Positions 1 to 15,722 of a DNA stretch of 15,722 nt are shown here, one piece after another. The notes beneath the pieces were generated by a model, which was not told the origin of the DNA, searched no databases, and saw only the letters and a program-made list of their open reading frames with translations. Each line of letters begins with the position of its first letter. The stretch's first letter is position 1. The position numbers and the translations under genes were made by a program. The stretch comes from a virus (Duplodnaviria > Heunggongvirae > Uroviricota > Caudoviricetes). The stretch is from IMG/VR virus record IMGVR_UViG_2602041549_000013, positions 1 through 15,722 of that record, one strand, 5' to 3'.

Positions 1-1059
1 TTATGCTCCGGCTTCTGCGGCGGCGGCGCTGAAGTCGCCAATCTGGATGTTTTCCACCAGTGCTGCGCAGCGGTAGTCCTCAACCACATAGGCTTCGTTA
101 ACGGATTCAAAGTTTTCAATCCGGTCACGTTTCGGGTTGTCGATAACCGAACGGCGGCGGGTGTCCTCCTGCCAGTAAATGGACAGGTTATCCAGACGGG
201 TGATCAGCAGCGCATTCGGCGGGAAGAACGGCGCACGCACGGCCTGCAGACCACCCATGCGTTTCTGACTGATGATCATATCGGCAGCCAGTTTTTCACT
301 GTTTTCCTGCTCTTTGTTGACCAGCGGGAAATACTTGTCAGACAGCAGTTCACGCCCGCAAATCACCACCAGATCGTCATCGTCCTGGTAGACCACGTCG
401 ATAAGCTCATTGACCGCATCCATCACCACAGCGTCCAGGTTGGCATATTCGCCACCTTTCCCGACTTTCACCGCACCCGGTGTGGTTTCGCCGCCCGTGG
501 TGGTGCTGCCCATGACGTGATCCGGTGCATCCTCACGGATTTTCTGCAACCAGCCTTTGTTCACATCCTGCAGCAGCGGGTTTTCACTACGGTTGGAGGT
601 TTTCGCACGCTTCACGCCGTTAAAGCCGATCATGATGCGGTCCAGTGCCTGACGTTTCACGATGGCGTCACGGATACGCACCTGGAAATCCTGAAACTTC
701 GCCCACAGGTCCAGCTTCGCGTAGGTCAGCACCGTGTCAAAGTTGGTCTGCTCGCATTTATATTCCACATCGACCATCAGCGTCGGATCGACAGGTTCAC
801 GCTCTTTCGCGGTGGTGTCAGTGGTTCCGGCAATGGTGCTGCCAACACCCAGCCCCAGCAGCTGACCGGACTGCTCAGTCACTGGCGTGACGTTAATCAG
901 CGTCAGGAAAGCGGCGGACTGCTGGATCTGGTCTTCCAGCGTCTGCTGCACAGACGGCTCCACAGTGAATTTGCTGGACAGTTCTTCAACTGCCACACCG
1001 TTCAGACGCGCCAGCTGCTGCAGGTAAGCGTTAAAAGCAAAGCGGGTATTCTTCTTCAT
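1..1059 (-). CDS. N: major capsid protein (P2 gpN-like), 352 aa
   Basis: Full ORF with ATG at 1059 and stop at 1-3; size and position immediately downstream of the scaffold gene match P2 gpN; recognised from the translated sequence. Confidence 0.85.
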   Translation of the reverse strand: MKKNTRFAFNAYLQQLARLNGVAVEELSSKFTVEPSVQQTLEDQIQQSAAFLTLINVTPVTEQSGQLLGLGVGSTIAGTTDTTAKEREPVDPTLMVDVEYKCEQTNFDTVLTYAKLDLWAKFQDFQVRIRDAIVKRQALDRIMIGFNGVKRAKTSNRSENPLLQDVNKGWLQKIREDAPDHVMGSTTTGGETTPGAVKVGKGGEYANLDAVVMDAVNELIDVVYQDDDDLVVICGRELLSDKYFPLVNKEQENSEKLAADMIISQKRMGGLQAVRAPFFPPNALLITRLDNLSIYWQEDTRRRSVIDNPKRDRIENFESVNEAYVVEDYRCAALVENIQIGDFSAAAAEAGA

Positions 1060-1075
1060 CAGGTTTTGTGCTCCA

Positions 1076-1909
1076 TCAGCAATTGGTCAGAGTGTCAGCG
1101 GGGGCGTTACCGCCTGTTGCACGCTGGCGGTAGTCCTGGCGGCTGTCTTCTTGACTCAGCTTATTCACCAGTTCGTTAAAGGCGGTTTGCTGCTCCTGCA
1201 GAGCAGTCTCCAGCTCAGACAGGCGTTCTTCCTGCTCAGACAGGGATTTTTCTGTGCGTGCGCTCAGGTTCTGCTGCTCAGTGGCGACCAGCTCCACGGC
1301 CTTATGCACATCAGAGAACCGGGCGTCATCGGACTGCTCTTTTTTGGTAAACAGCGCCGTGACACGGGCAAACAGGGACGGCTTGTCCTCCTGGATTTCT
1401 TCCAGTTCGATCACCGTTTCCTCTGCAGCGGTAAAAAGATTGGCGGGATTCTGCTTGCGGTTTGCCAGTGGGTTATGGGCTGCACTGGCGCTGAATGTCA
1501 GCATTTCAGTGCCCAGACTGGCAGGGTCATCAGTGGCAGCCAGGCCGACCAGGTAGGCTTTGCCCGTATCAGCGAACTTCGGGCTGACTTCCATAGAGGT
1601 GAATAATTTCTGGCCTTTTTTCACCAGTTCCACCAGGGACTCCGTTGGCTCAACGTCGGCATACAGCGCCATCTTGCCTGCCAGCGGACCTTCCGTGATT
1701 TCTTCAGCAAACAGCGCCGTCACCTTGCCGTAGCGGTTAAAGGTGCTGTCCGGCAGATAAGACTTGATGTGCTCAAGGTTAATCAGCGCGGTATACACCG
1801 CCGGGTTGTAGCTGGCTGCCATCTGTTCCAGCCATTCACGCTGGATTTCGCGTCCGTCGGTGGTGGCACCTTCCACCCCGATGCGAAAACGCTTTGTTTT
1901 CACTGTCAT
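1076..1909 (-). CDS. O: capsid scaffolding protein (P2 gpO-like), 277 aa
   Basis: ORF divergent from the terminase gene; acidic coiled-coil-like C-terminal half (EQ-rich) typical of scaffolds; position O then N as in P2. Confidence 0.8.
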   Translation of the reverse strand: MTVKTKRFRIGVEGATTDGREIQREWLEQMAASYNPAVYTALINLEHIKSYLPDSTFNRYGKVTALFAEEITEGPLAGKMALYADVEPTESLVELVKKGQKLFTSMEVSPKFADTGKAYLVGLAATDDPASLGTEMLTFSASAAHNPLANRKQNPANLFTAAEETVIELEEIQEDKPSLFARVTALFTKKEQSDDARFSDVHKAVELVATEQQNLSARTEKSLSEQEERLSELETALQEQQTAFNELVNKLSQEDSRQDYRQRATGGNAPADTLTNC

Positions 1910-1987
1910 GAGCCGTGCTCCGTTAGAAAAAACTTACTGGAGCCTTATGGTTGCGGTGATGGGGGCAGTGAAACAATGCGCGGTATT

Positions 1988-2005
1988 TGTACCGACAACC
2001 ACACA
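1988..2005. promoter_or_regulatory. TGT-N12-ACA dyad in the divergent O/P intergenic region; candidate Ogr/Delta-type late-promoter activator site
   Basis: Sequence TGTACCGACAACCACACA seen directly; P2-family late promoters are known to carry a TGT-N12-ACA element centred near -55. Its centre is about 55 nt upstream of a plausible start for the - strand O operon. Confidence 0.3.
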
Positions 2006-2051
2006 AATCGCAGGCGGGGAAAGCCTTCATTCAAGGCTGTAGGTTTGTGCC

Positions 2052-3818
2052 ATGAACACCACACTGACACCCGCAGATCTCGATCCCCGTCGGCAGGCCA
2101 TGCTGCTGTACTTTCAGGGATACCGCGTAGCCCGCATTGCTGAAATGCTGGGCGAGAAAGTTGCAACCGTTCACAGCTGGAAAAAACGCGACAAGTGGGG
2201 TGACTATGGGCCGCTGGATCAGATGCAGCTCACCACCGCCGCACGCTACTGCCAGCTCATCATGAAGGAGCATAAAGAAGGGAAAGATTTCAAAGAGATT
2301 GACCTGCTGGCGCGCCAGTCTGAGCGCCACGCGCGGATCGGCAAGTTTAACAATGGCGGCAACGAAGCCGACTTAAACCCTAACGTCGCCAACCGCAACA
2401 AAGGCCCACGCCGTCAGCCTGAAAAGAATGTTTTCACCGATGAACAGATTGAGAAGCTGGAAGAAATTTTCCATTCCTCCATGTTCAACTACCAGCGCCA
2501 CTGGTGGGAAGCCGGAAAAACCAACCGCATCCGCAACCTGCTGAAGTCACGCCAGATCGGCGCGACCTTCTATTTTGCCCGTGAAGCCCTGATTGACGCC
2601 CTGCTTACCGGACGTAACCAGATTTTCCTTTCTGCCAGTAAGGCACAGGCCCACGTCTTCAAACAGTACATCATCGACTTTGCCAAAGAAGTGGAGGTGG
2701 AGCTGAAAGGCGATCCGATGGTGCTTCCCAACGGGGCCACACTGTATTTCCTCGGCACCAATGCCCGCACTGCCCAGAGTTATCACGGCAACCTGTATCT
2801 GGATGAATATTTCTGGATACCGAAATTCCAGGAGCTGCGCAAAGTGGCTTCCGGTATGGCTATTCACAAAAAATGGCGACAAACCTATTTTTCCACGCCA
2901 TCCAGCCTGACACACAGTGCTTATCCGTTCTGGTCCGGTGCGCTGTTCAACCGTGGGCGCAACAAAGCCGATAAGGTGGACATCGACCTGTCCCACAGCA
3001 ATCTGGCCCCCGGCCTGCTGTGCGCAGACGGGCAATACCGCCAGATAGTCACCGTGGAAGATGCAGTGCGCGGCGGATGTAGCCTTTTCGACCTCGATCA
3101 GTTGCGCATGGAGTACAGCCCGGACGAATACCAGAACCTGCTGATGTGCGAGTTTGTGGACGATCTCGCGTCCGTGTTCCCGCTCAGCGAGCTGCAGGCA
3201 TGCATGGTGGACAGTTGGGAAGTCTGGACCGACTTTCATGCTCTGGCCCTGCGCCCGTTTGGCTGGCGCGAAGTGTGGATCGGTTATGACCCGGCAAAAG
3301 GTACGCAGAACGGCGACAGCGCCGGATGCGTGGTGGTGGCACCGCCAGCCGTGCCGGGCGGTAAGTTTCGCATTCTTGAGCGTCACCAGTGGCGCGGGAT
3401 GGACTTCCGCGCCCAGGCTGACGCAATCAAAAAACTGACCGAGCAGTACAACGTGACCTACATCGGCATCGACTCAACCGGCGTTGGTCACGGGGTTTAC
3501 GAGAACGTGAAAGCGTTCTTTCCTGCCGTCCGGGAGTTTGTCTACAACCCCAACGTTAAAAACGCCCTGGTTCTCAAGGCCTACGACATTATCAGCCACC
3601 GCCGTCTGGAGTTTGACGCCGGATATACCGACATTGCGCAGTCATTTATGGCAATCCGTCGCGCCACCACCGCCAGTGGCAACCGCCCGACCTATGAAGC
3701 CAGCCGCAGCGAAGAAGCCAGCCACGCCGATCTGGCATGGGCAACGATGCACGCACTGTTTAACGAACCGCTGCAGGGCGAATCCGCCAATACCAGCAAT
3801 ATTGTGGAGATTTTTTGA
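2052..3818 (+). CDS. P: terminase large (ATPase) subunit (P2 gpP-like), 588 aa
   Basis: Long ORF divergent from O; size and N-terminal sequence consistent with P2 gpP; its stop overlaps the start of the portal gene. Confidence 0.85.
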   Translation: MNTTLTPADLDPRRQAMLLYFQGYRVARIAEMLGEKVATVHSWKKRDKWGDYGPLDQMQLTTAARYCQLIMKEHKEGKDFKEIDLLARQSERHARIGKFNNGGNEADLNPNVANRNKGPRRQPEKNVFTDEQIEKLEEIFHSSMFNYQRHWWEAGKTNRIRNLLKSRQIGATFYFAREALIDALLTGRNQIFLSASKAQAHVFKQYIIDFAKEVEVELKGDPMVLPNGATLYFLGTNARTAQSYHGNLYLDEYFWIPKFQELRKVASGMAIHKKWRQTYFSTPSSLTHSAYPFWSGALFNRGRNKADKVDIDLSHSNLAPGLLCADGQYRQIVTVEDAVRGGCSLFDLDQLRMEYSPDEYQNLLMCEFVDDLASVFPLSELQACMVDSWEVWTDFHALALRPFGWREVWIGYDPAKGTQNGDSAGCVVVAPPAVPGGKFRILERHQWRGMDFRAQADAIKKLTEQYNVTYIGIDSTGVGHGVYENVKAFFPAVREFVYNPNVKNALVLKAYDIISHRRLEFDAGYTDIAQSFMAIRRATTASGNRPTYEASRSEEASHADLAWATMHALFNEPLQGESANTSNIVEIF

Positions 3819-4855
3819 TGGGAAAGAGTAAGAAGAACCGAGCTGCGGCGACGAAACAGATCCAGCTTAAAAGTCAAACTACAGCCGAAGCATTCAGCTT
3901 CGGCGATCCCGTTCCTGTTCTGGACCGCCGTGAACTGCTGGACTATGTGGAATGCGTACAGATGGACCGTTGGTATGAGCCGCCCGTCAGCTTTGACGGA
4001 CTGGCGCGCACCTTCCGCGCCGCCGTGCATCACAGTTCCCCGATTGCAGTAAAGTGCAACATTCTGACCAGTACCTATATCCCTCATCCGCTGCTCAGCC
4101 AGCAGGCTTTTTCGCGTTTTGTGCAGGACTATCTGGTATTTGGTAACGCCTACCTGGAGAAACGCACGAACCGATTCGGTGAAGTTATCGCCCTTGAGCC
4201 TGCCCTGGCAAAATACACCCGACGTGGATTAGACCTGGATACCTACTGGTTTGTGCAATACGGCATGACAACGCAACCGTATCAGTTCACGAAAGGCAGC
4301 ATTTTTCACCTGATGGAACCGGATATCAACCAGGAGATCTACGGCCTGCCCGGTTATCTTTCTGCCATTCCGTCAGCCCTGCTCAACGAGTCCGCCACGC
4401 TGTTCCGTCGAAAGTATTACATTAACGGCAGTCATGCAGGCTTCATCATGTACATGACCGACGCCGCGCAGAACCAGGAGGATGTAAACAACCTCCGTAA
4501 CGCGATGAAAAGCGCCAAAGGACCAGGTAACTTCCGCAATCTGTTTATGTACTCGCCTAACGGCAAAAAGGACGGACTTCAGATCATCCCATTGTCAGAA
4601 GTCGCGGCGAAGGATGAGTTTCTGAATATCAAAAATGTCAGCCGCGATGACATGATGGCAGCGCACCGTGTGCCACCGCAAATGATGGGGATTATGCCGA
4701 ATAATATTGGGGGGTTTGGGGATGTGGAGAAGGCAAGCCGTGTATTCGTCCGAAATGAGCTAATGCCACTACAAAAGCGATTACAGGAGATGAATGATTG
4801 GCTTGGCAAGGAGGCGATACGGTTTGATACCTACTCGCTAGATATAGCCCCATAA
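3818..4855 (+). CDS. Q: portal (capsid completion) protein (P2 gpQ-like), 345 aa from ATG 3818
   Basis: ATG at 3818 overlaps the P stop TGA (ATGA coupling); the ORF track starts 3 nt earlier at a TTG. Size and position match P2 gpQ. Confidence 0.85.
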   Translation: MGKSKKNRAAATKQIQLKSQTTAEAFSFGDPVPVLDRRELLDYVECVQMDRWYEPPVSFDGLARTFRAAVHHSSPIAVKCNILTSTYIPHPLLSQQAFSRFVQDYLVFGNAYLEKRTNRFGEVIALEPALAKYTRRGLDLDTYWFVQYGMTTQPYQFTKGSIFHLMEPDINQEIYGLPGYLSAIPSALLNESATLFRRKYYINGSHAGFIMYMTDAAQNQEDVNNLRNAMKSAKGPGNFRNLFMYSPNGKKDGLQIIPLSEVAAKDEFLNIKNVSRDDMMAAHRVPPQMMGIMPNNIGGFGDVEKASRVFVRNELMPLQKRLQEMNDWLGKEAIRFDTYSLDIAP

Positions 4856-4857
4856 TA

Positions 4858-4884
4858 AGAAAAGCCACCGTTTGGTGGCTTTTC
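4858..4884. terminator. bidirectional intrinsic terminator between convergent Q and the kinase operon
   Basis: GCCACC-GTTT-GGTGGC hairpin flanked by an A-run upstream and TTTTCTTC downstream, lying between the Q stop (4855) and the - strand stop at 4890. Confidence 0.6.
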
Positions 4885-4889
4885 TTCAT

Positions 4890-5630
4890 TTACTCAATAG
4901 GTTCAAACTCATCTTGAGGAATCAGCGTCGATTGACAGGCTTGGCTTAGTACCCCTGATAATTTACATAATAACCGATAGTTATGAGGAGCATCATCGCT
5001 AATCTTTTCGACCGTTAAAGTGATTGATTTTGGATCATCCAATAACATCTTCTTGATGTCATTACTTAAATACCTAGGGCAGTAACCAACGATTTCAGCT
5101 GGTTTATCTGCACGAACGACAACAGCATCCCCATCGTATTCATTTTGAAGATCCAAGCAAAGACGCAAAATTTGCCCCGGTTTCAATTCAGATACACGAG
5201 CATTAGCTAAGCTATTCAAGTAACCAAGTCCATGTAAGAAGAAAAAATGCTCAAAGTTACCATCAGAATCAAAATCAATTTTTTTGAAAATCTGCAGCTG
5301 ATCAGTGCTTCGTAAGCCTCCCGAGCGAGCAAGAATATCGATAGGATTTACCTTATCTTCTTCAAATCCAAGCCATTTAATGAAACTCGGATACTCTGGA
5401 CGTCTCGGTGATAAAAGGCGATTTTTAAAAAGAGGAAACAATTCTTCCGATACATAAGTTTCACGAACATCACTCATGCCGCTAAACTTTGTAAATTTAG
5501 AAGATTTAAGAGCACCTTTGGTATACCTGAAAACATACCCCGATTTGCGCTCTTGCAAGTTACCAACAACATGCCAGTCTCTGGTATCTGGTGCCTGCCA
5601 TGCGACGTAAACGGAGTTTGTATTAGTCAT
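4890..5630 (-). CDS. kinase partner protein, 246 aa: N-terminal HipA-N/HipS-like region (approx. aa 1-110) fused to a HIRAN-like domain (approx. aa 125-215)
   Basis: Start ATG overlaps the kinase stop (ATGA at 5627-5630). N-terminal VVGNL...YVFRY...LFPLFKNRLLSPRRPE resembles the HipA N-subdomain-1 / HipS pattern; C-terminal LGYL...LKPGQILRLCLDLQNEYDGDAVVV...VGYCPRYLS resembles the HIRAN pattern. Domain calls are from motif memory, not a search. Confidence 0.5.
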   Translation of the reverse strand: MTNTNSVYVAWQAPDTRDWHVVGNLQERKSGYVFRYTKGALKSSKFTKFSGMSDVRETYVSEELFPLFKNRLLSPRRPEYPSFIKWLGFEEDKVNPIDILARSGGLRSTDQLQIFKKIDFDSDGNFEHFFFLHGLGYLNSLANARVSELKPGQILRLCLDLQNEYDGDAVVVRADKPAEIVGYCPRYLSNDIKKMLLDDPKSITLTVEKISDDAPHNYRLLCKLSGVLSQACQSTLIPQDEFEPIE

Positions 5631-6541
5631 TCTAGTAACCTTCTGCGATTTTCCATTACCATTAACGTTGCAAATCTACGTGCACTGTCGGATATACACG
5701 ATGAAGGCACTTGGTTAAACACATCTGTAATGGAATCTTCTGTTAAAACGCTCAACTTACCTAACCAATGGTCGCGAGCGGCAACTCTCCCTTCAACTGC
5801 ATGTTGAAATGCTTCAACAGTCAGCAAGGGCTTTTTATCAGTTTTTGCTTTGAATAGCTCAGAGCGAGCTTTTCTTACAAAACATGGGATTTGTCGATTT
5901 TTATCTTTAGTATTAAGCCGTTCGCTACGCTCATCATCTAACATCTCCCTTCCTAAACTAGCGGCATGATCGTATGTTGGACACAAAAACTGCTCACCAG
6001 TTTCATTGTTAAGCATGATTGCCCAATTTTCATGGTGGCGATCTTGATTACTCACAAGTGCATCGAGCATCAAATATCCACAAAATACATCTGCTGCATT
6101 TAGCCCGGTTAGATCATATACACTCGGAGGAGGCTTGATAGATTCCCTATCTAAACAACCCAAGACCCTTGTGACAGTGTGTTCTCTGACCCTTACCGGC
6201 TTTTCCCCGGCTTGTAAAGGCCCAGGATAATCGAATGTCGAACTGTGAAGCACTTCATTTCCCATTACCATCCGGAAACCAGATGGAATGATATTCTGAG
6301 TCACCACACCGAATCGACCATTGTATCGCGCCAAATCATAGCTAGCATGTGGAATGTTAAGCAAATGACATAACTCAGCAGCACACTTTTCAGACCAATG
6401 CTCGCCAGTACCTGGCCTAGAGTACTTAAACAACTGCAAATTTACAGTGTCATCGGAGAAATAGAACCAAAACTTCTCTTTGGTTCCTAACTGTTCAAGA
6501 TCGTTAGCTACGGGGCTAAGCTCTACCAATTGGTATGGCAT
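5627..6541 (-). CDS. short HipA-family (HipT-like) Ser/Thr protein kinase, 304 aa
   Basis: Gly-rich loop GTKEK near the N-terminus (aa 19-23); catalytic motif D167-R-H-H-E-N172 and downstream LCPTYD191 match the HipA catalytic and Mg-binding aspartate motifs. Region is visibly AT-richer than the phage backbone. Confidence 0.75.
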   Translation of the reverse strand: MPYQLVELSPVANDLEQLGTKEKFWFYFSDDTVNLQLFKYSRPGTGEHWSEKCAAELCHLLNIPHASYDLARYNGRFGVVTQNIIPSGFRMVMGNEVLHSSTFDYPGPLQAGEKPVRVREHTVTRVLGCLDRESIKPPPSVYDLTGLNAADVFCGYLMLDALVSNQDRHHENWAIMLNNETGEQFLCPTYDHAASLGREMLDDERSERLNTKDKNRQIPCFVRKARSELFKAKTDKKPLLTVEAFQHAVEGRVAARDHWLGKLSVLTEDSITDVFNQVPSSCISDSARRFATLMVMENRRRLLE

Positions 6542-6693
6542 CTGACATCCCTGTTTAGCGGATTATGAATAAGTTAGGTTCCATTTTATCCAAACATTGT
6601 CAAATACCCTAAGATTTATTAGATGATAGAGCGATACTGTATGCATGTCCAGCAATCAAATCAATATATAACTCTTATATGGCTTAACGCGCG

Positions 6694-6712
6694 CTCGTAT
6701 CCCCGCCACGCC
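6694..6712. other. candidate cohesive-end (cos) site
   Basis: Reverse complement GGCGTGGCGGGGATACGAG shares its first 13 nt with the 186-type cohesive end as I recall it (GGCGTGGCGGGGAAAGCAT); orientation and position beyond Q are as expected. Recalled sequence, not verified. Confidence 0.35.
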
Positions 6713-6761
6713 TGCCCGCTTTATGTAGTGGTTTTCATGCAGGTGCATGATCTACGCAAAA

Positions 6762-6781
6762 GCCCGCCAGTTCTGGCGGGC
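6762..6781 (-). terminator. perfect 9-bp stem hairpin next to the cos candidate; possible - strand terminator or part of the cos/terminase region
   Basis: GCCCGCCAG-TT-CTGGCGGGC; on the - strand it is followed by TTTTGCG. Confidence 0.35.
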
Positions 6782-7054
6782 CTTAGCAAAAACGATCCTC
6801 AAACGATCATGCAATCTCATGCAGCATAGACATGCACAGACGAGTAAAGCGAATCGGACTTTACGCAAGGTGAACTCCTCAGCGGGTATAATCAGTATGT
6901 CGGAAAATCTCTAAAAATAAATAATTCGGTTAACAGGTATGCTTACAAAAGCATATATTTGATTAAAAATCATGTAAGGGGGAGGATCTCAAACTGAATC
7001 GCCACGGGTTTTGCAAATTTCGATAGTCTCTCTAACGTTTCGGCTGAGGTCAAA

Positions 7055-7480
7055 ATGAAAAGCTTTTACGTATTAATTTTAATTCTGGTTGCAAGCTTTG
7101 TTAGCGTCCCAGTTCAGGCGGTAACAGCTAAAAACTATGAGAAAGGAACTAAAGCTCAACAGAAATCAATAGCTTACCTTTCATGTGCATTCTATGGCAG
7201 TAGCACACAATTAGATCCTAGCTACACGGGGCAAGTACCTACAGCCGATATCAAGATATTACAGAAAGCAGCTTACCACGCTTACAACGATGCGCTCTCA
7301 TACTTAGGCTATGAGGAACCAGATCACGAACAACGCATAATTGATTATGCTGAATTTGTGGCGTCGCAAGAAGCTGTGTTATGGGATAAGCCGGGAATGA
7401 ATGGAAAGCAGGTAACACTAATTGCTCGTTCTCTCTACAATGAGAGTAACTGTAACTTGTTACTGGACTCAATTAAGTAG
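7055..7480 (+). CDS. secreted protein of unknown function, 141 aa, with a cleavable signal peptide
   Basis: RBS GAGGT upstream of the ATG; N-terminal MKSFYVLILILVASFVSVPVQA with AxA-type cleavage site; two Cys in the mature part; AT-rich gene and upstream region. Confidence 0.55.
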   Translation: MKSFYVLILILVASFVSVPVQAVTAKNYEKGTKAQQKSIAYLSCAFYGSSTQLDPSYTGQVPTADIKILQKAAYHAYNDALSYLGYEEPDHEQRIIDYAEFVASQEAVLWDKPGMNGKQVTLIARSLYNESNCNLLLDSIK

Positions 7481-7639
7481 GAAAAAGATGGTATTTTGCC
7501 CGTAGTTTCAACCTTAATCTCCGAACCTGTCGCAGAACGGGCGTTCACTCATCAAATAAACGCCACACCTAACGCCTCACTGTACTCGTTGTTCAACCTT
7601 GCTGACGCCAGAACCAAGTTCAGACGCCAGCAACTTTTC

Positions 7640-7873
7640 TTAATGCAGCCAGCTGTCGTCTTCCCACACCTTCTGCATAATTTTCATCACTTGTTTTCTT
7701 TCTTCGTCCAGTTGCAGTCCGGTCAGTTCCACACCGTTAGAGCTACCTTTGCGGATGCGAATTACCGTTTTGGGATACAGGGGGCGCAGATTGCGGTAAA
7801 GCTCTGATTCAAGGGCGTCCAGGGTAGACTGGTTAATCTTCTGCTCTTTATCGATCATTATTTCAATGCGCAT
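7640..7873 (-). CDS. DinI-family protein, 77 aa from ATG 7873
   Basis: MRIEIMIDK...LDALESEL...YP...WEDDSW aligns with the E. coli DinI pattern; GAGGTG RBS 6 nt upstream of the ATG; the longer ORF-track start at 7945 is not used. Confidence 0.8.
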   Translation of the reverse strand: MRIEIMIDKEQKINQSTLDALESELYRNLRPLYPKTVIRIRKGSSNGVELTGLQLDEERKQVMKIMQKVWEDDSWLH

Positions 7874-7883
7874 AAAAGTCACC

Positions 7884-8072
7884 TCAACTGATGACATCCA
7901 TTGAGCGGTTGTATTCGTGAGTTCTGATTTTTGCCATGAGTTCATCAGTCAACTCAGAAACCCACTGCAGAGCCAGCCCCTTCTCTTCATCACTACACTC
8001 ACTAGCCGCTACAAGCTTAAGAAAAAAATCAATGCGCTGGAGCTTCAAAGACTCCAAAAAATAGTCCTGCAT
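7884..8072 (-). CDS. small SOS-regulated protein, 62 aa; possible Tum-like antirepressor
   Basis: First gene downstream of the LexA box; AGGAGG RBS before ATG 8072; forms an operon with the DinI-like gene. The 97-aa version from 8177 would contain the LexA box and is rejected. Function is inferred by position only, by analogy with the 186 tum operon as I recall it. Confidence 0.45.
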   Translation of the reverse strand: MQDYFLESLKLQRIDFFLKLVAASECSDEEKGLALQWVSELTDELMAKIRTHEYNRSMDVIS

Positions 8073-8113
8073 CTTTCCTCCTATGACACCACACGCAACA
8101 CTGTATGTATAAC

Positions 8114-8133
8114 CACTGTTTATATTTACAGTA
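8114..8133 (-). promoter_or_regulatory. LexA (SOS) box in the promoter of the small-ORF/DinI operon
   Basis: CACTGTTTATATTTACAGTA has a perfect CTGT-N8-ACAG core and matches 17 of 20 positions of the consensus TACTGTATATATATACAGTA; an extra CTGT half-site at 8101-8104; a TTTACA -35-like hexamer lies at 8151-8156 on the - strand. Confidence 0.7.
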
Positions 8134-8225
8134 TATAATAATCTTACTGATGTAAAACGTTTTTTTACATTCATCACCCTGATATACCTGGTATTATTAA
8201 GAGCACGAATTGTTAACCCGCGTAA

Positions 8226-10640
8226 TTAATACAGGTTCCGCCACTGATCATCTTCCTGCAAACGCTGGTTCCGATAGAAGATACGCAGGCCTGCTCCTGA
8301 CGGAATACTGCCTCCGCGAAGGAGTAAATCGACCTCTTTCTCGCTGCCATCAAATCCTCTGGACTTCAGCTCATACACGAGCTGCAGTCGCTGATGGTCT
8401 GTAATTCGCTGTTTGTAGTCTTTACGCCGTTTCGGTTTCACCAGGCGTAACCTTGCAGCCAGTTCCCGGCGCTCTTTTTTGCTCATACTGTGCAGGTAAT
8501 CGTGCAACTCCTTGTCATCCATGCGGGTAATGTCCGTTCTGGTATCCCCATCAGCTGATTTGTCTTTCCCTTGTTGGTTCAAATTTTCAGCAAGGGGACA
8601 GTTATTGCCACGAGTCCAAGGGGCGCAAGCGCCCTGGTCGGCTGCCGCCTCCTGAACGTCAACGGCCTTACGAACCATTTTCCACTTCACTGCATGAGTG
8701 CAGATCTTGCCCTCTGCAATGGGTGACCAGATGCCATAAATACGAATACCGTGATCGCCATAGGCGGTTGGCTCTTCGTTGATTTCATAAGCGGTTCTGA
8801 TGAGGTGATATTTGCGGGAAACCAGTACGCCGCCCTGCTTCATGATGTAGGTGGCAAAACAACCAGCATCAGCAGCAGCCAGGATGGCATCAAGGCGCGG
8901 GTTATCCAGTACCGGCGCACCTGCTTTTTTGTCACCCTGTTGCCTTGCCGCCTGACCAGCCAGCAATCGCAGTTCACGGTAAGCCTGACGCCCCGGAATG
9001 CCAAAGAAGCGGAATTGCTGAACACGATGCAGAGACGCCCAGGCATTAACGTATTCAGCGTTATCACGCAGGGATTTACCCGTTTCCTTACTGATCTCGC
9101 CAGCCAGACCACACCCGTCAATATTCTTACTGATATATTTCGCAATGTAGCTTGTCGGCGTTCCTTTGCGCGGGTTTATCAGCTCAGACTTAAAGCGTGG
9201 CCCCGTGTTATTGCCCAGCTCCTCGCGGTCTTCACGGATGGCAAACTTACGCAACAATGCAGTAATGGCGCGGCGGTCTTTTTTACGCATGAAACACAAC
9301 AGGTGCCAGTGAACTGTGCCGTCATGATGCGGCTCAGCCACCCGCACGCCATACCAGCGCAACCCGGCTTTGTGCATAGCCTTACGAAATGCAGCAAACA
9401 TGCCGACCAGATAATCGCTGCTTTGTCTTACTGTCGCGTTGGTCCAGGTCGGGTTTGGCCTGCCGTTATTTAGCGTGGAATGGAAACGTGACGGACAGGT
9501 GATGGTGTAGAAAACGGCGCAGTCACCACGCATTTCCGCGATAAGCTCCAGGCCTTTAACACAGGCCATCATCTCATTGCGGCGATGCGCCGGGTTGCTG
9601 CTGCTGGCGTTTACCACATCCTCCATGTTCAGCGTGTCGCCGTCTTCGTTCACCAGTTCATGAGAACGGAAAAACTCCAGCGACTTACGGCGCTGCTCAC
9701 GTTTATGCATCACGGCTTCATAGCTGACATAGGGAGATGCTTTTTTGCTGACCAGGCAGACAGCACGCAACTGCTCTTCCCGCCATTCGCAACGCATCTT
9801 CCATAATTTCCGATACCACCAGTCGGCGCACAGCATACGCGCCAGCGAACCCGGAATGAGTTCATAGGGCACAGGTTTGCGGCGGTTTCTTTTCCGGCGG
9901 AGTTGCTCAAACGCAGGCGGTATGACATCCAGTCGCAGGGTTTCTGCAGCCACCTTTTCCCATGTCTTGCGGATTTCTTCTGGCTTAACATCATCGGAGG
10001 CGTACAAATCACCACAAGCGGCATCAAGACACATGCTCATATGCGCAGCGACAAGGGTAGACAGGCGTTTCACCTGATCCTGACTCATTTCAGGCAGGAT
10101 CAGCAGACCGTCCAGCCCTTCATGGCTTGCCATAAAACGAAAAGATGCAGATAGCTGGCTGTCGCGTACATGCTCCAGTCGTTCCAGACATGGCTTAATC
10201 GTCTCACGCAAATAGCGGGAATAAGCCTTTGGCCTGCCCAGGCTGCTGAAATATTCAATACGTTGCATCAGCGGCTTGCTGATATGGGAAGGCTGGGCGT
10301 TGACGTCGGCCAGAATGACCATGTCCGGATTAAAACGCTGCTGCTCATGCGCCATCTTTGCCCGGCTAATGAGCTTATCCTGCTCCATTTCGCGTTGGAC
10401 AGGATCACGGGATTCATTAAAGAAATAACGCTCCCAGACCTGATCACTCAGTGCCTCGCGGCGCAACTGTTCCTGCTCGTTATCGGCAGCGTACAGAGTG
10501 ATCAGGTTTGAAAGCGTAGAAACCGGCGCAACTTCCGCCGGGTCCAGATAAGGGTTAATGGCCTTTTTCGGGCTGTTCCATGAGAATGCTGCGGCAGCCT
10601 CGTTAAAGCCGCAGCAGTTGTTCATATCGGCATGACTCAT
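8226..10640 (-). CDS. A: rolling-circle replication initiator / endonuclease (P2 gpA-like), 804 aa
   Basis: HUH-type motif VHWHLL and active-site tyrosine motif YIAKYISK typical of gpA-type Rep proteins; start ATG overlaps the dam stop (ATGA). Confidence 0.85.
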
Positions 10641-11494
10641 GCACGTACTCCGTACACGGCAGAACTATCCACGCCACGCGAATAATCAAATCCCATCCAG
10701 CAGCGCGGCCCGGAAACAGCAATGATTTCTGTTGCTGATTTACCCTCGCCAGCTGCCACACCGATGCTGCGTTTTACCTTGATATAGTGGTGAGTAAAAT
10801 TGCGATACAGCGAACGGATCAGGGATGTGTCACTGTTAGAAACAATGACTGGATGTCCTTCTGATGACCGATGTTCAAGAACGGATGCCAGGTGATACTG
10901 GTCATCTTCAGTGAAACCATCAGTGTGATAGCCGGAAAACGTACCGTCATACGGCGGATCGCAATACACCACATCTCCCGCCTTCAACATCGCCAGCGTT
11001 TCATCAAAGCTGGCGCAGATAAACGTTGCTCGCTGGGCTTTTTCTGCAAATGTGCGAAGTTCTTTTTCAGGGAAATACGGATTTTTATAATTACCGTAGG
11101 GGATGTTGAAATGCCCGCTCTTGTTATAGCGACATAAACCACGGTAACCGTGACGATTAAGATACAGGAAATATACCGCTTTCATGAAATCAGTAATTTC
11201 AGTTGAGCAGTTAAACTCCTGCCTTATGTTGTAATAAGCCACCTCCCTGTTTGCGATCTCAAATAAAACTCTGGCGCGAGATATAAACGATTCACAATCA
11301 GCGGCAACCTTTTTATAGAGGTTGATTAAATCAGGATTAATATCCGCAACCAGATAGCTGGGATAATCCGTTTCCATCATCACAGCACAGGAACCCGCGA
11401 AAGGTTCAACCAGTCGCGGGCCAGCAGGAAGGTATTTTTTCAGTTCTGGCATAATGGCGGTTTTATTTCCCGCCCATTTCAGGATGGTGCTCAT
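10637..11494 (-). CDS. dam: DNA adenine methyltransferase (Dam family, orphan), 285 aa from ATG 11494
   Basis: N-terminal KWAGNK and FAGSCAV motifs and catalytic DPPY motif; ATG 11494 overlaps the upstream zinc-finger gene stop (ATGA) and follows a GGAGGTG RBS; the ORF-track start at 11554 is not used. Confidence 0.8.
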
Positions 11495-11718
11495 ACAGCA
11501 CCTCCGTTGTAATGTTTGCCTTTCAGTTCTGCGATTTCCTGACAGGTAATGCAAAGCTGCACTCCCGGAATGGCGCGGCGTCGTGCTGGCGGAATTGGCG
11601 CTTCACATTCAATGCAAAGTACGCGTGACACGCCCGGTGATTTGGCACGGGCTGCACGGATATGGCGCTGGCGTTCTTCTTCAACGCGCTGCTGTACGAG
11701 ATCCATTGCATCAGCCAT
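11491..11718 (-). CDS. TraR/DksA-family C4 zinc-finger protein, 75 aa
   Basis: Two CxxC pairs (CIECEAPIP ... CITCQ) in a small basic protein; common position in P2-like early operons. Confidence 0.7.
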   Translation of the reverse strand: MADAMDLVQQRVEEERQRHIRAARAKSPGVSRVLCIECEAPIPPARRRAIPGVQLCITCQEIAELKGKHYNGGAV

Positions 11719-11951
11719 TAGTGGATCTCCTGCGCTTCGTTCTGGATTGCTTCAGCAGTCACGCGCAGCAGTTCTGCCGCTTCCACGTGGTTTAGCTGGC
11801 GGGATGAGATATGACACGCCAGGCTATCAAGGCGAGCAGCCATTGCTTCAGCCCTTGCCCGGCGTTCTTCCAGACGAGCCTCTGTCAGTAAAATATTAAG
11901 CCCTGCGTCATCCGGTCCGGTTTTAGTCGTGAGGGTTTCAATATTACGCAT
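11718..11951 (-). CDS. hypothetical early-operon protein, 77 aa from ATG 11951
   Basis: ORF with AGGAGA RBS 7 nt upstream of ATG 11951; stop overlaps the next start by 1 nt. Confidence 0.45.
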   Translation of the reverse strand: MRNIETLTTKTGPDDAGLNILLTEARLEERRARAEAMAARLDSLACHISSRQLNHVEAAELLRVTAEAIQNEAQEIH

Positions 11952-12018
11952 AATCAATTCTCCTGAATTTAGATAAAGGGATGCCCGGCGGGTTTACGCC
12001 ATTAATTTCATTAGTTGG

Positions 12019-12360
12019 TTAATTCGGCATGGTTAGCCGTCTGGGAAATAAGCTCACCACTGCACGAAAATGATTCATTGCTTTAATCAGCTCCCGCTTT
12101 TCGTCAGTGGTCAGCTCATTAATGCTGATGCTATGACGTTCAGCTGGAATTTTTGCCATAAAGAATATGGCAGCCAGTGCCCGTTTATTTTGTTCATTAT
12201 TGATATCCCGTGGATCACGCATATCTTTAATAAACCGCTCAAGCTCTGACTCAATATTCAGGCCAAAAACTTTCGCCCTTAACTCTGCAATGTGATTAAG
12301 TCCATTCAGGCGTTCACCGGGGCTTAATGGAACAGTTGCTGCAGCGCCATTAATTGCCAT
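12019..12360 (-). CDS. hypothetical early-operon protein, 113 aa
   Basis: ORF in the operon with a purine-rich RBS; no recognisable motif. Confidence 0.45.
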   Translation of the reverse strand: MAINGAAATVPLSPGERLNGLNHIAELRAKVFGLNIESELERFIKDMRDPRDINNEQNKRALAAIFFMAKIPAERHSISINELTTDEKRELIKAMNHFRAVVSLFPRRLTMPN

Positions 12361-12382
12361 ACTTCATATCCCCCAAACGCAG

Positions 12383-12607
12383 CTATCGTTCTTTGTTCTT
12401 ACGGTAACGCTCAAGAGGAGATACATTTTTTCGTATCGTCTCTTTAACCTGCTCTCCCCGTAAAAACGTCCCATCCTTTAACGTGAAAAAGTAACTGCCA
12501 TCGCCCGACAATGACGGATAGCAACAGAGCAAATCATCTTCAGGTACTGAATAACTCTCCCCTCTGTAACGAAACTGATAAACCACTTCACTTTCTGCCG
12601 CATACAT
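12383..12607 (-). CDS. hypothetical early-operon protein, 74 aa
   Basis: GGAG RBS about 9 nt upstream of ATG 12607; aromatic-rich, protein-like composition; overlaps the upstream ORF out of frame. Confidence 0.4.
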   Translation of the reverse strand: MYAAESEVVYQFRYRGESYSVPEDDLLCCYPSLSGDGSYFFTLKDGTFLRGEQVKETIRKNVSPLERYRKNKER

Positions 12608-12774
12608 TTGGACTTTCTCCGTTTCCTCGTGGTCAATTCAGACAGCAATTCATCTTGTGAATGACATGGATGCCAGCGTTTTCCATCCTCACCCGTGATC
12701 CAGCCGTGACCGTAGTGCATTGTCGGGCTTTGTTTTACCAGCAGCGATGCAAATGATGGTTCTTTCGTCAGCAT
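12478..12774 (-). CDS. hypothetical early-operon protein, 98 aa from ATG 12774; 3' portion may be an out-of-frame read-through
   Basis: GAGGTG RBS overlapping the cII stop, ATG at 12774; the last ~45 codons overlap the next gene in another frame and are Lys/Arg-rich. Confidence 0.35.
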   Translation of the reverse strand: MLTKEPSFASLLVKQSPTMHYGHGWITGEDGKRWHPCHSQDELLSELTTRKRRKSKCMRQKVKWFISFVTEGRVIQYLKMICSVAIRHCRAMAVTFSR

Positions 12775-12781
12775 AAGCACC

Positions 12782-13291
12782 TCACAGCAAACCGAATGAA
12801 GCACCGAGGCCAGTCACGGTATCAACTGCACTCGCCATCGCAGGATTAGCCTGTAAACGGGCCTGCAATGAAACAGCAGCCAGCGCCATCAGTCGTGTTA
12901 CAGAGTTAATGCTGCTGATAGCATCACGACGACCGGCACTAGTTTTTACATCACCAGATACCGCACCTGCTGCAACACGCCCGATCTCTGCAGTTGCGCT
13001 CATGACGTAATGCGGCAGTTTCTCTTTTGCTACCTCATTAATCGGTACACATGGCAGACAATGAATCTGTGCCAGAAAACCATCTACCAACGTTGAATCT
13101 TCAGTCAGATCGGTAAGCAGCCAGATTTCTGGTGCGGTTAATAAATGAGGTTGAGCTGGGTTCAGCTTGTTCCGCAGAATCTGCACATTCATGCCCGCAC
13201 GTTCTGCCAGTTGCACCAGATTGTGGCGCAGTGCGAATGCACGACAGGCTTCATCAAAATGTGGATGTTTGGAAACTTGGTAATCAAACAT
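12782..13291 (-). CDS. cII: CII-like transcriptional activator (186 type), 169 aa from ATG 13291
   Basis: N-terminal helix-turn-helix ([30 protein letters not shown]); second gene of the lytic operon after apl; length matches 186 CII as I recall it; GGAG RBS before ATG 13291. Confidence 0.65.
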
Positions 13292-13355
13292 GGTTTTCAA
13301 CTCCGAACTTATCGCAAAATCGAACTCAGCGTCTTATTGCGAAAATAGACGTCTA

Positions 13356-13559
13356 TTAAGCAGACAAAGCATCAACAGTCAGAGCAGCCAGGTTAATCAT
13401 TACCTTTTCACGTTTTTTGTCTTTACGAAGACGATGACGAGGTAGTCGGCCATCAGCCAACATGTCGTTAATCGTATCAATAGAAAGGCCAGTCAGTTCG
13501 CTATAACGTTCGATTGTGACATGTGGTGTATTCAGAGTAATTGAAATGTTAGGTGTCAT
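13356..13559 (-). CDS. apl: Apl/Cox-like excisionase / transcriptional regulator, 67 aa
   Basis: First gene of the - strand lytic operon, divergent from cI; small HTH protein with basic C-terminal tail; AAGGA RBS. Confidence 0.6.
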
Positions 13560-13704
13560 AAGGCAACATTCCTTCTAGATATGGCTTGTGGCGAGCCGTT
13601 GTTTGTCGTGATTAGTAGTGAAGGCTCCAAAAGAACACTTCTGGTTCAACTTTAAGATCGCTTTTGGAATCTGTCAACGAATTTTGGATTTCTTTGGAGG
13701 ACTT
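13560..13704. promoter_or_regulatory. lysis-lysogeny switch region between apl and cI (candidate face-to-face pR/pL promoters and operators)
   Basis: Intergenic region between divergent apl and cI; - strand TTGACA (13673-13678) with TAAAGT 18 bp downstream is a candidate lytic promoter; direct TTTTGGA repeats at 13662-13668 and 13683-13689. Confidence 0.35.
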
Positions 13705-14274
13705 GTGGATTTCAATAGCGGCGGTAAGAAAGCCATAGAACGTTTAGTTGAAGCATATGGGTTCGGTACCCGTCAGGCTCTATGTGATCATTTAGGTGTT
13801 TCTAAGAGCACCATGGCAACGCGCTATATGCGTGATATTTTTCCAGCAGATTGGGTAATCCAGTGCGCCCTTGAAACGGGCACCTCGCTTAATTGGCTAA
13901 CAACAGGGCATGGTTCAAAGCAAGCATCAGCAAATACAAATACTATAGAAGTAGAAAAATATTTATTGTCTGATGGAGCATTGCAGAAAGACGGTTTTTA
14001 TATTTTTGATAAGGGATTTCTACCCTCTACGTTTAAAAAACCTTTTGTCATCACAGATAACAATTCTGAATTTATTTGTGATAAAGAATTTGATGATATA
14101 CGTGATGGTAAATGGGTAATAAGTATTGATGGCGAAATAACGATCCGTGACATTACTCGTTTACCCGGTGGAAGAATCTTCGTCGAGGGTGGAAACAGAG
14201 CCTTCGAATGCAAGATAGAAGACATTGAAATAATTGGTAAAATTATAAGTTTAACAGTCAAGTATGTTAAATAG
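13705..14274 (+). CDS. cI: immunity repressor CI (186 type), about 189 aa
   Basis: HTH RQALCDHLGVSKSTMATRY followed by ETGTSLNWLTTGHG, typical of XRE-type phage repressors; divergent from apl/cII and upstream of int. Start is ambiguous: GTG 13705 after GGAGG is preferred over GTG 13618 or TTG 13684. C-terminal half is AT-rich. Confidence 0.7.
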   Translation: MDFNSGGKKAIERLVEAYGFGTRQALCDHLGVSKSTMATRYMRDIFPADWVIQCALETGTSLNWLTTGHGSKQASANTNTIEVEKYLLSDGALQKDGFYIFDKGFLPSTFKKPFVITDNNSEFICDKEFDDIRDGKWVISIDGEITIRDITRLPGGRIFVEGGNRAFECKIEDIEIIGKIISLTVKYVK

Positions 14275-14289
14275 TACCGGGAGGAAACT

Positions 14290-14481
14290 ATGCTTGGTAA
14301 GGTATTTTTTGTGGTTTTGTCATGTTCTTTGTTATTAAACCCACTAACTACCTATGCTAGAAATTATCCCTGCTCAGGGAAAAAGGGAGGTGTTTCTCAC
14401 TGTACCTCAGATGGCAAATTCGTTTGCAATGATGGAACTATTAGTAAATCCAAAAAAATCTGTACTAAAAACTCACGATAA
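14290..14481 (+). CDS. small Cys-rich secreted peptide or lipoprotein, 63 aa, unknown function
   Basis: Strong RBS GGGAGGA; hydrophobic N-terminus with either a signal-peptidase I site (TYA) or a lipobox-like VLSC; four Cys in a roughly 40-aa mature part; AT-rich. Confidence 0.4.
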
Positions 14482-14669
14482 CTTTTGCTTTTATATCTGC
14501 GTCTAAAATAAAAATGAGCCGCAGGTTAACCGCAAAAGTTACATGCTCACATAGCAAAAAGAATAGCCAACTTAATTATGGCTTCAGTGAGATGTATGGT
14601 CGTAGGATTTCATACATTGACACTGGTTATACATACAGTGAAAATGCTCTCTACTGGAGGGCATTTTTT

Positions 14670-15722
14670 ATGGCAGTACGAAAACTCACCACTGGGAAAT
14701 GGCTTTGCGAATGTTACCCCGCCGGACGAAGTGGGCGTCGTGTGCGTAAACAATTCGTCACCAAAGGCGAAGCACTGGCTTTTGAGCGCCACACGATGGA
14801 AGAAACCGAAGCAAAGCCCTGGCTGGGTGAATCAGTGGATCGTCGAACACTGAAAGACGTGGTTGAGCTATGGTTCAAACTACATGGTAAATCTCTGACA
14901 GCTGGGCAGCATGTCTATGACAAATTGCTGTTGATGGTTGACGCTCTGGGCAATCCTCTTGCAACCGATCTCACCTCTAAAATGTTTGCCCACTATCGAG
15001 ATAAACGCCTGACAGGCGAGATCTACTTCAGCGAGAAATGGAAGAAAGGAGCAAGCCCGGTCACCATTAACCTGGAGCAAAGCTATCTAAGTAGTGTTTT
15101 TAGCGAACTATCCCGTCTGGGCGAATGGTCGTATCCGAACCCACTGGAGAACATGCGAAAATTCACCATCGCAGAAAAAGAGATGGCATGGCTTACCCAT
15201 GAGCAGATTGTTGAATTGCTGGCTGATTGCAAACGTCAGGACCCAATTCTGGCACTGGTAGTTAAGATATGCTTAAGCACAGGCGCACGCTGGCGTGAAG
15301 CCGTAAATCTTACCCGCTCACAGGTGACCAAATACCGAATTACCTTTGTCAGAACGAAGGGGAAGAAAAACAGAAGCATCCCTATCAGTAAAGAGCTTTA
15401 CGAAGAGATCATGGCGCTTGATGGGTTCAATTTCTTCACAGACTGCTATTTTCAATTTTTATCCGTGATGGAAAAAACGTCTATCGTGCTCCCTCGCGGT
15501 CAACTCACACACGTTCTGCGCCATACGTTTGCGGCGCACTTCATGATGTCGGGTGGAAACATTCTGGCCTTACAAAAAATTCTCGGACACCACGATATAA
15601 AAATGACTATGCGTTACGCACATCTGGCACCGGATCATCTGGAAACGGCGCTCCGTTTCAATCCTCTGGCAACGCTGCCAAGTGGCGACAAAGTGGCGGC
15701 AGCGGTTGGCATTACCCCGTAA
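14670..15722 (+). CDS. int: tyrosine integrase (P2/186 type), 350 aa from ATG 14670
   Basis: N-terminal MAVRKLTTGKW...GRSGRRVRKQF typical of P2-family integrases; C-terminal R...HxxR...Y catalytic pattern (LRHTFAAH ... MRYAHL); GGAGGG RBS 8 nt upstream of ATG 14670; the ORF-track extension from 14514 is rejected. Confidence 0.85.
   Translation: MAVRKLTTGKWLCECYPAGRSGRRVRKQFVTKGEALAFERHTMEETEAKPWLGESVDRRTLKDVVELWFKLHGKSLTAGQHVYDKLLLMVDALGNPLATDLTSKMFAHYRDKRLTGEIYFSEKWKKGASPVTINLEQSYLSSVFSELSRLGEWSYPNPLENMRKFTIAEKEMAWLTHEQIVELLADCKRQDPILALVVKICLSTGARWREAVNLTRSQVTKYRITFVRTKGKKNRSIPISKELYEEIMALDGFNFFTDCYFQFLSVMEKTSIVLPRGQLTHVLRHTFAAHFMMSGGNILALQKILGHHDIKMTMRYAHLAPDHLETALRFNPLATLPSGDKVAAAVGITP

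Follow-up and report, generated by a model that had tools for sequence, protein, structure and literature searches.

Small, envelope-targeted proteins made by a resident phage can block entry of further phages, as do Cor (phi80/N15), Llp (T5), Ltp (TP-J34) and Imm/Sp (T4), all of them lipoproteins or membrane proteins whose receptor or tape-measure targets are known. In Vibrio phage K139 the lysogenic genes are ordered cI-orf2-glo-int, and the record calls glo a 'periplasmic protein; involved in phage exclusion'. Escherichia coli YdcA is described in the literature as a 57-residue predicted periplasmic protein of unknown function, and no established function for the YdcA family was found there. 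Legionella Dis2 (Lpg0823) belongs to the outer-membrane cap in the Dot/Icm T4SS (a type IV secretion system), where it lies next to the outer membrane as two similar lobes with five disulfides (PDB 7MUC/7MUD), contacts the lipoproteins DotK, DotC and DotD and is dispensable for assembly; it has been considered Legionellales-specific, without structural relatives and without obvious homologues where the T4SS is of the prototypical kind. All of these bear on the subject of this report, a 63-codon open reading frame (ORF) between the repressor gene cI and the integrase gene int of a 186-like prophage, found in a 15,722-nucleotide stretch of viral DNA (IMG/VR record IMGVR_UViG_2602041549_000013, positions 1 to 15,722) that is called the window throughout.

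The ORF is a real, strongly conserved YdcA-family gene that the prophage carries as cargo (a 'moron'), as many 186-like prophages do directly downstream of cI. A first-pass annotation, made from the sequence alone, had placed a gene of 63 codons with a strong ribosome-binding site between cI and int, and both the gene, with its ATG on the plus strand, and the site are found as described. The features of the gene and its product are as follows:

14290-14481, plus strand: YdcA-family ORF, ATG start, 63 codons plus stop, read from the sequence.
14280-14284, plus strand: Shine-Dalgarno (SD) sequence GGAGG, 5 nt upstream of the ORF's ATG, read from the sequence.
14290-14358, plus strand: signal peptide, residues 1-23, with predicted signal peptidase I cleavage after Ala23, between TYA and RN.
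14359-14478, plus strand: mature basic peptide of 40 residues with four invariant cysteines and the motif end.iSKSKk.C, from homologue alignments.

The choice between 'signal peptide or lipobox' that the first-pass annotation had left open falls to the former. The N-terminus has one lysine, a hydrophobic core of 12 residues and T-Y-A at positions -3 to -1, and alignments of 24 and of 38 homologues show Ala23, at position -1, to be invariant or almost so. For a lipobox we required [LVI][ASTVI][GAS]C with a conserved cysteine that lies 15-35 residues from the N-terminus, where cleavage occurs. The sole candidate, VLS-C12, was rejected because homologues have L, F, G or S in place of Cys12; as a lipidation site Cys12 is also ruled out by its location inside the hydrophobic core, too near the N-terminus, and the cleavage motif that is kept is A23 followed by R/K. 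The predicted signal peptide is thus of the signal peptidase I type and not that of a lipoprotein. The four cysteines noted earlier in the short mature part (Cys28, Cys38, Cys46 and Cys58) are all invariant, and in the same 24- and 38-member alignments the full set of invariant positions is P27, C28, S29, K32, G33, G34, C38, F44, C46, G49, S52, S54, K55 and C58. The mature part has a pI of 9.7, with 9 K/R against 2 D/E among its 40 residues. An AlphaFold2 model shows a small beta-hairpin core (pLDDT 84-91 over residues 31-60), for which Foldseek returned no significant structural neighbour.

The ORF scores 115.8 bits (E 5e-34) against NCBIfam NF007463 (PRK10040.1-2), whose curated cut-off is 93, and matches PHROG 6000 at 1.9e-34; PF27300 'YdcA' is precomputed on its 90% cluster representative, which is 98% identical, and on allelic copies. 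Its architecture, a Sec signal peptide followed by a single four-cysteine domain of about 36 residues (PCSG.KGG...C...F.C.DG..S.SK..C), is that of the family. A Pfam scan with a library copy lacking PF27300 gave a chance match only (GULLO2-like, E 0.075). The first-pass annotation had made its proposal depend on conservation in related prophages, and this was found: the ORF is located between cI and int in 628 of the 5426 complete E. coli genomes, with HS and NC101 among the carriers, the exact protein occurs on at least 1000 public contigs of E. coli, Salmonella Typhi and Klebsiella, and 508 viral contigs in IMG/VR encode a relative. In most of the best 80 of these IMG/VR loci the contig ends 1244 nt past the YdcA-family gene, which makes it the penultimate prophage gene. 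Among the E. coli matches listed the ORF is always annotated as a coding sequence (CDS), either 'hypothetical protein' or 'YdcA family protein' (WP_000900883.1). The family is therefore already catalogued (RefSeq, PF27300, NF007463, PHROG 6000) and functionally uncharacterised, and the gene is not novel; a literature search with YdcA, the accessions and the family identifiers found no functional study of the phage copies.

Selection on the peptide is strong. Pairs of E. coli alleles show 8-12 synonymous against 1-3 non-synonymous differences in the mature part (residues 24-59), a ratio of non-synonymous to synonymous rates (dN/dS) of 0.025-0.04. When the comparison is with Yersinia alleles and with a second E. 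coli allele type, the proportion of synonymous differences in the mature part (pS) is saturated at 0.89-0.95, and that of non-synonymous differences (pN) is 0.05-0.10. The signal peptide segment has a dN/dS of about 1 against the Yersinia alleles. A freely evolving signal segment joined to a fixed mature part is the signature of a peptide that is, by prediction, exported and functionally constrained. The first-pass annotation had also allowed that the ORF could be spurious. That it is a spurious or decaying, functionless frame would fit its short length, its AT-richness and the Pfam scan without a significant match, but the selection analysis excludes this explanation: the peptide is kept while synonymous sites saturate, curated family models match it, and hundreds of genomes from different genera carry the gene intact. 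We give this alternative practically no weight.

The window covers the right part of a 186-like prophage (Peduoviridae) that is integrated beside rcdA/ybjJ. It contains genes for capsid, terminase and portal, a cargo slot, a DinI-like gene and genes for replication endonuclease, Dam, Fil and cII, followed by an apl-like gene, cI, the ORF and int, which is the final prophage gene; chromosomal rcdA comes next. The features around the ORF that bear on its expression are:

13705-14274, plus strand: 186-type cI repressor gene, GTG start (Pfam Phage_CI_repr 3.3e-31, Phage_CI_C 4.7e-29; RefSeq 'phage repressor protein CI').
14479-14541, plus strand: long RNA hairpin starting at the ORF stop codon (fold -20.5 kcal/mol, z -4.8 against shuffles).
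14617-14645, plus strand: promoter-like TTGACA-17-GAAAAT in the int leader (consensus scan, 10 of 12 matches; a candidate only).
14640-14668, plus strand: 13-bp terminator-like hairpin consisting of A-tract, stem and U6 (fold -18.1 kcal/mol, z -4.1).
14670-15722, plus strand: tyrosine integrase gene int (Pfam Int_N 3e-32, Phage_integrase 1e-21; RefSeq CDS).

Expression together with cI had been predicted from the position of the ORF in the lysogenic operon, and the arrangement is consistent with this, the ORF lying on the same strand as cI with its ATG 15 nt beyond the cI stop codon (14272-14274). The ORF would be transcribed with cI from the lysogenic promoter, because the gap is only 15 nt, the ORF has its own strong SD sequence, a consensus scan of the plus strand found no terminator-like site between the two genes, and a terminator-like hairpin occurs only after the ORF. 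The placement of that hairpin, behind the ORF and before int, strengthens the case for expression in lysogens, although it does not prove it. The ORF also shares the AT-richness of the C-terminal half of cI, as had been stated; the G+C fraction is 0.354 for the ORF, 0.33 for that half of cI and 0.365 for the spacer 3' of the ORF, compared to 0.49 for int and 0.489 for the window.

The 188-nt spacer between the ORF and int is strongly structured as RNA, with a minimum free energy of -62 kcal/mol against -39.9 ± 3.9 kcal/mol for shuffled sequences (z -5.65). The hairpin that starts at the ORF stop codon has no U-run after it and may be a 3'-end stabiliser or processing site. In the second hairpin the int SD sequence GGAGGG lies inside the 3' arm, and the U-run abuts the int ATG at 14670. 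When folded individually, the regions upstream of int in Yersinia prophages and E. coli NC101 (loci L013 2486-2600, L028 5154-5270 and L008 4044-4135) gave comparable hairpins whose stem sequences differ; MAFFT places the 3' arms of the E. coli and Yersinia int-leader hairpins out of register, because the Yersinia hairpin has a bulged A. The recurrence of this design before int suggests that int could be insulated from the cI message or translationally masked. The maintenance transcript would accordingly comprise cI and the ORF and would stop, or have the int ribosome site masked, before int. The TTGACA -35-like box of the int leader and an ACTG..CAGT inverted repeat are conserved in E. coli, Klebsiella phage 4LV2017 and the Yersinia prophages, and promoter-like matches in the region are no more frequent than expected by chance (3 found, 3.9 expected). 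A near-consensus TTAACA-17-TATAAT at the 3' end of cI (14270-14242, minus strand) points antisense into cI. Rfam found nothing at gathering score in the whole window.

The ORF had been described as inserted between cI and int, and comparison with phage 186 bears this out. There position 22433 belongs both to the cI stop and to the int start and no gene lies between them, so that the ORF is cargo relative to 186. Megablast detected no cultured phage with a cI-ORF-int interval, returning only int 5'-end matches to Klebsiella phages. Two other E. coli prophages (L006 and L007) have an apl-like gene and a cI N-terminal, DNA-binding segment that are 53-75% identical to those of the window, and a cI C-terminal half and ORF that are 86-100% identical despite the differing immunity region. 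The conservation of this AT-rich pair across differing N-terminal halves indicates that it travels together across immunity types. Comparison of window positions 13341-13825 with the same two prophages places a mosaic boundary inside cI. E. coli NC101 shares its immunity region with the window and has an ORF allele of 91% identity and an additional KAP-family NTPase gene between the ORF and int (L008 2712-4043). Another allele encodes a 61-residue product with an unrelated signal peptide in the order cI-YdcA-KAP-int (L093-L097, KAP at 5198-6529). This KAP-family P-loop NTPase matches a candidate defence protein of PADLOC, PDC-S20 (2e-171), and resembles PifA and QatA more weakly, and the cI-int interval of some 186-like prophages thus also holds candidate defence genes.

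The same arrangement extends well beyond E. coli. In three Yersinia species and one Pasteurellaceae genome a YdcA-family gene stands behind a cI that is only 36-40% identical to that of the window, and in the Yersinia prophages int comes after it. Haemophilus phages HP2 and S2 have an unannotated YdcA homologue of 60 residues in the gap between cI and orf1/int, which in HP2 is located as follows:

NC_003315 2486-2668, minus strand: HP2 YdcA-family ORF, whose ATG has its first base in common with the last base of the cI stop.

This overlap of start and stop suggests translational coupling to cI. In Klebsiella phage 4LV2017 the cI-int slot is occupied by a different gene, of 350 codons. Judging from these gene orders, P2-like phages have between cI and int a variable cargo slot, which has repeatedly taken up genes for proteins with predicted export. 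The ORF is accordingly an ordinary prophage cargo gene of unknown function and not a new kind of element.

A profile search of 5.8 billion proteins returned at least 1069 YdcA-family clusters at 90% identity, nearly all of them stand-alone proteins of 46-78 residues, and the top 120 are short stand-alone members only; clustering at 50% identity leaves 450 representatives. The family is carried by at least 140 species-level genomes from the gamma-, beta- and alpha-proteobacteria and is frequent in Acinetobacter, Moraxella, Neisseria, Haemophilus and Yersinia. Prophages of Moraxella and Acinetobacter have the gene among structural genes; in those of A. baumannii it occupies a variable island between tail tube and tape measure, together with Panacea, HicAB, antirepressor (Arc/KilA-N) and YedD genes. 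A DUF4236 gene always lies 9 to 92 nt downstream of the YdcA-family gene in the A. baumannii prophages (L098-L102, 5001-5600). The family is also found on 58 plasmid records. One of these, the 3916-bp MOBQ plasmid pApiMCR53a of A. pittii, has five genes, one of which encodes a YdcA-family protein of 58 residues (728-904) beside a traD-like gene. UniRef labels the E. coli phage protein 'conjugal transfer protein', and a context such as that on pApiMCR53a may be the origin of the label.

Fused family members offer a clue to mechanism. Following the signal peptide, the YdcA domain is found as the N-terminal module of three unrelated nuclease superfamilies:

PF00565: YdcA fused to Staphylococcal nuclease (SNase), 2 examples, E 1e-29 and 5e-24.
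PF01223: YdcA fused to DNA/RNA non-specific endonuclease (Endonuclease_NS), 3 scanned examples and 1 unscanned fragment (P0294), E 7e-35, 8e-33 and 6e-24.
PF13091: YdcA fused to a PLD-type nuclease (PLDc_2), 1 example, E 5e-19.

The fused members include L048 1732-2655, L084 4569-5321 and proteins P0211, P0274, P0279 and P0286. An HNH match in one fused member was weak (E 0.009), below the cut-off, and was not counted. Further architectures comprise two or three tandem YdcA repeats and combinations with a PBCV basic adaptor (PBCV_basic_adap), VasL of the type VI secretion system (T6SS) or Lys-rich repeats. The domain is basic throughout the family, with a median net charge of +5 over about 35 residues and at least +2 in 44 of 47 distinct domains. 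Nuclease fusions and positive charge make DNA or another polyanion a possible ligand.

A second clue leads to Dis2, the only PDB sequence matched by the family profile (7MUC chain AN, E 2.6e-4, two tandem matches). The two matches share the motif CS.K.GGI..C....G..VCN[ND]G..S, carried by each Dis2 lobe, and Dis2 is the top, non-significant Foldseek match for the ORF model (38% identity, probability 0.75). Dis2 looks like two divergent tandem YdcA-like lobes of weak homology, and this similarity makes outer-membrane proteins the other candidate ligand. It also gives rise to an alternative explanation, that the product is a Dis2-like accessory subunit which docks on outer-membrane lipoproteins or on a trans-envelope machine (T4SS, T6SS, pilus or DNA uptake) and modulates it, with a ligand that is not DNA. 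The disulfide-pinned Dis2 lobes beside the outer membrane and their lipoprotein contacts agree with such a role, as do the members with two or three tandem repeats and the one fused to VasL; we consider it rather improbable all the same. Together these clues point to a small, predicted binding module at the periplasmic face of the envelope.

The explanation towards which we lean, although with somewhat less than even confidence, is that the ORF encodes a lysogen-expressed periplasmic binding protein that would hinder foreign DNA entry. The product, made from the cI message, would be exported by Sec and cleaved after Ala23, and the mature peptide would be oxidised in the periplasm to a strongly cationic, 40-residue mini-domain with two disulfides. 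This mini-domain could bind a polyanionic or outer-membrane-proximal target, DNA being the first guess, and binding would impede entry of foreign DNA into the lysogen, that is, superinfection exclusion or competition between mobile elements. Such a role would parallel that of the non-homologous periplasmic Glo of vibriophage K139. We propose exclusion or lysogenic conversion because of the position of the ORF, in the slot that holds glo in K139, its cargo neighbours and the domain fusions. A wider and unlikely extension is that the YdcA domain is a hitherto unrecognised periplasmic or extracellular disulfide mini-domain that binds DNA or other polyanions. In bacteria it would serve as a tether for nucleases that are secreted; in phages and plasmids the domain on its own, produced together with the repressor, would intercept DNA that crosses the envelope by phage injection, conjugation or natural transformation, and the Dis2 lobes would be divergent copies of the fold.

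Several observations weigh against a role in exclusion. No defence-protein model in PADLOC-DB 2.0 matches the ORF at E <= 0.01, and the parallel with Glo is positional only. The nuclease fusions are few (7 examples found) and could mean enzyme anchoring instead of DNA binding; Dis2, the only putative relative with a solved structure, binds outer-membrane lipoproteins, not DNA. The paralogue ydcA, beside cybB, is core in E. coli (5416 of 5426 genomes), and Moraxella bovoculi has a chromosomal, non-mobile copy of the family, both of which fit a housekeeping role in the envelope. The only ydcA phenotype on record is the sensitivity of an E. coli W deletion strain to 300 mM 3-hydroxypropionate, to which a reported acid induction through YdcI is to be added (PMC7642389).

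The last three of these points could also reflect cargo for host fitness, in which a constitutive extra copy of periplasmic YdcA buffers the envelope under acid, organic-acid or other envelope stress while incoming DNA is left untouched. The phage and host mature parts are about 70% identical (pN 0.17), in agreement with a shared role, and non-mobile chromosomal copies occur in other genera. This explanation does not account for frequent carriage on phages and small plasmids amid defence or toxin-antitoxin cargo, nor for the repeated nuclease fusions, and a host copy is already present in lysogens. We rank an envelope-stress role close behind exclusion and as nearly as likely, which leaves it possible but doubtful. 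Far less can be said for the idea that lysogens secrete the product as a cationic antimicrobial or bacteriocin-like peptide to attack competitors. It is small, positively charged, rich in disulfides and, by prediction, exported, but Sec export goes no further than the periplasm, only cI and int flank the gene, with no adjacent immunity, processing or export genes, nearly all E. coli have a core chromosomal paralogue, and many family members are N-terminal modules of larger enzymes; we regard this possibility as very unlikely.

At present the outcome is mainly one of annotation: the ORF is real, does not encode a lipoprotein and is already catalogued, and the records of HP2 and S2 miss a homologue. 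If the phage copy blocks entry or modifies the envelope, this would be the first function for a very widespread family of small proteins, and the cI-int interval of 186-, HP1- and K139-like phages would join the known cargo and defence slots of P2-like phages.

Elsewhere in the window, the cargo slot between the portal and the DinI/replication genes holds two overlapping genes (4890-6541, minus strand) that match the PADLOC candidate system PDC-M03. Their products of 303 and 245 residues match PDC-M03A (5e-122, with a weak HipA_C match) and PDC-M03B (4e-92, HIRAN 1e-13), respectively. In another E. coli strain this portal-DinI slot contains a DUF262 gene. A 141-codon ORF in the cargo region of the window (7055-7480, plus strand) has no Pfam or PADLOC match.

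Among known systems, E. coli K-12 YdcA (b1419; PF27300 / PRK10040 / PHROG 6000) is closest to the ORF product. Both belong to the same family, both consist of a signal peptide and one domain of about 36 residues, and both carry the motif PCSG.KGG[VI]SHC..GKFVC.DGS.S.SKK.C with its four invariant cysteines. The K-12 gene lies in the chromosomal cybB-rydC-ydcA locus, whereas the ORF is phage-borne and stands behind cI; the signal peptides are unrelated, the mature parts differ at the pN given above, and the ORF fits the sub-model NF007463 but falls short of the K-12 equivalog NF007462, scoring 68.5 bits where the cut-off is 118. The unannotated HP2/S2 ORF is likewise a YdcA-family gene that a P2-like phage carries on its lysogenic strand directly behind cI; it differs in that its start overlaps the cI stop and a secreted-protein gene, orf1, intervenes before int.

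Glo of K139 (Peduoviridae) shares with the ORF the cI-int slot on a P2-like lysogenic operon and a periplasmic product, predicted in the case of the ORF. The two have no sequence similarity (BLASTP E 0.17, 7 of 30 identities), and Glo, with 136-137 residues (414-nt CDS), is not Cys-knotted. Dis2 is the only putative relative with a solved structure, and each of its lobes, pinned by disulfides beneath the outer membrane, carries a YdcA-like motif. It is two-lobed and part of a type IVB secretion system, in contrast to the single-lobed ORF product, whose gene neighbours cI and int in a window without T4SS genes. Compared to the envelope exclusion proteins Cor, Llp, Ltp and Imm/Sp, the ORF product is predicted to be a soluble periplasmic mini-domain without a lipobox.
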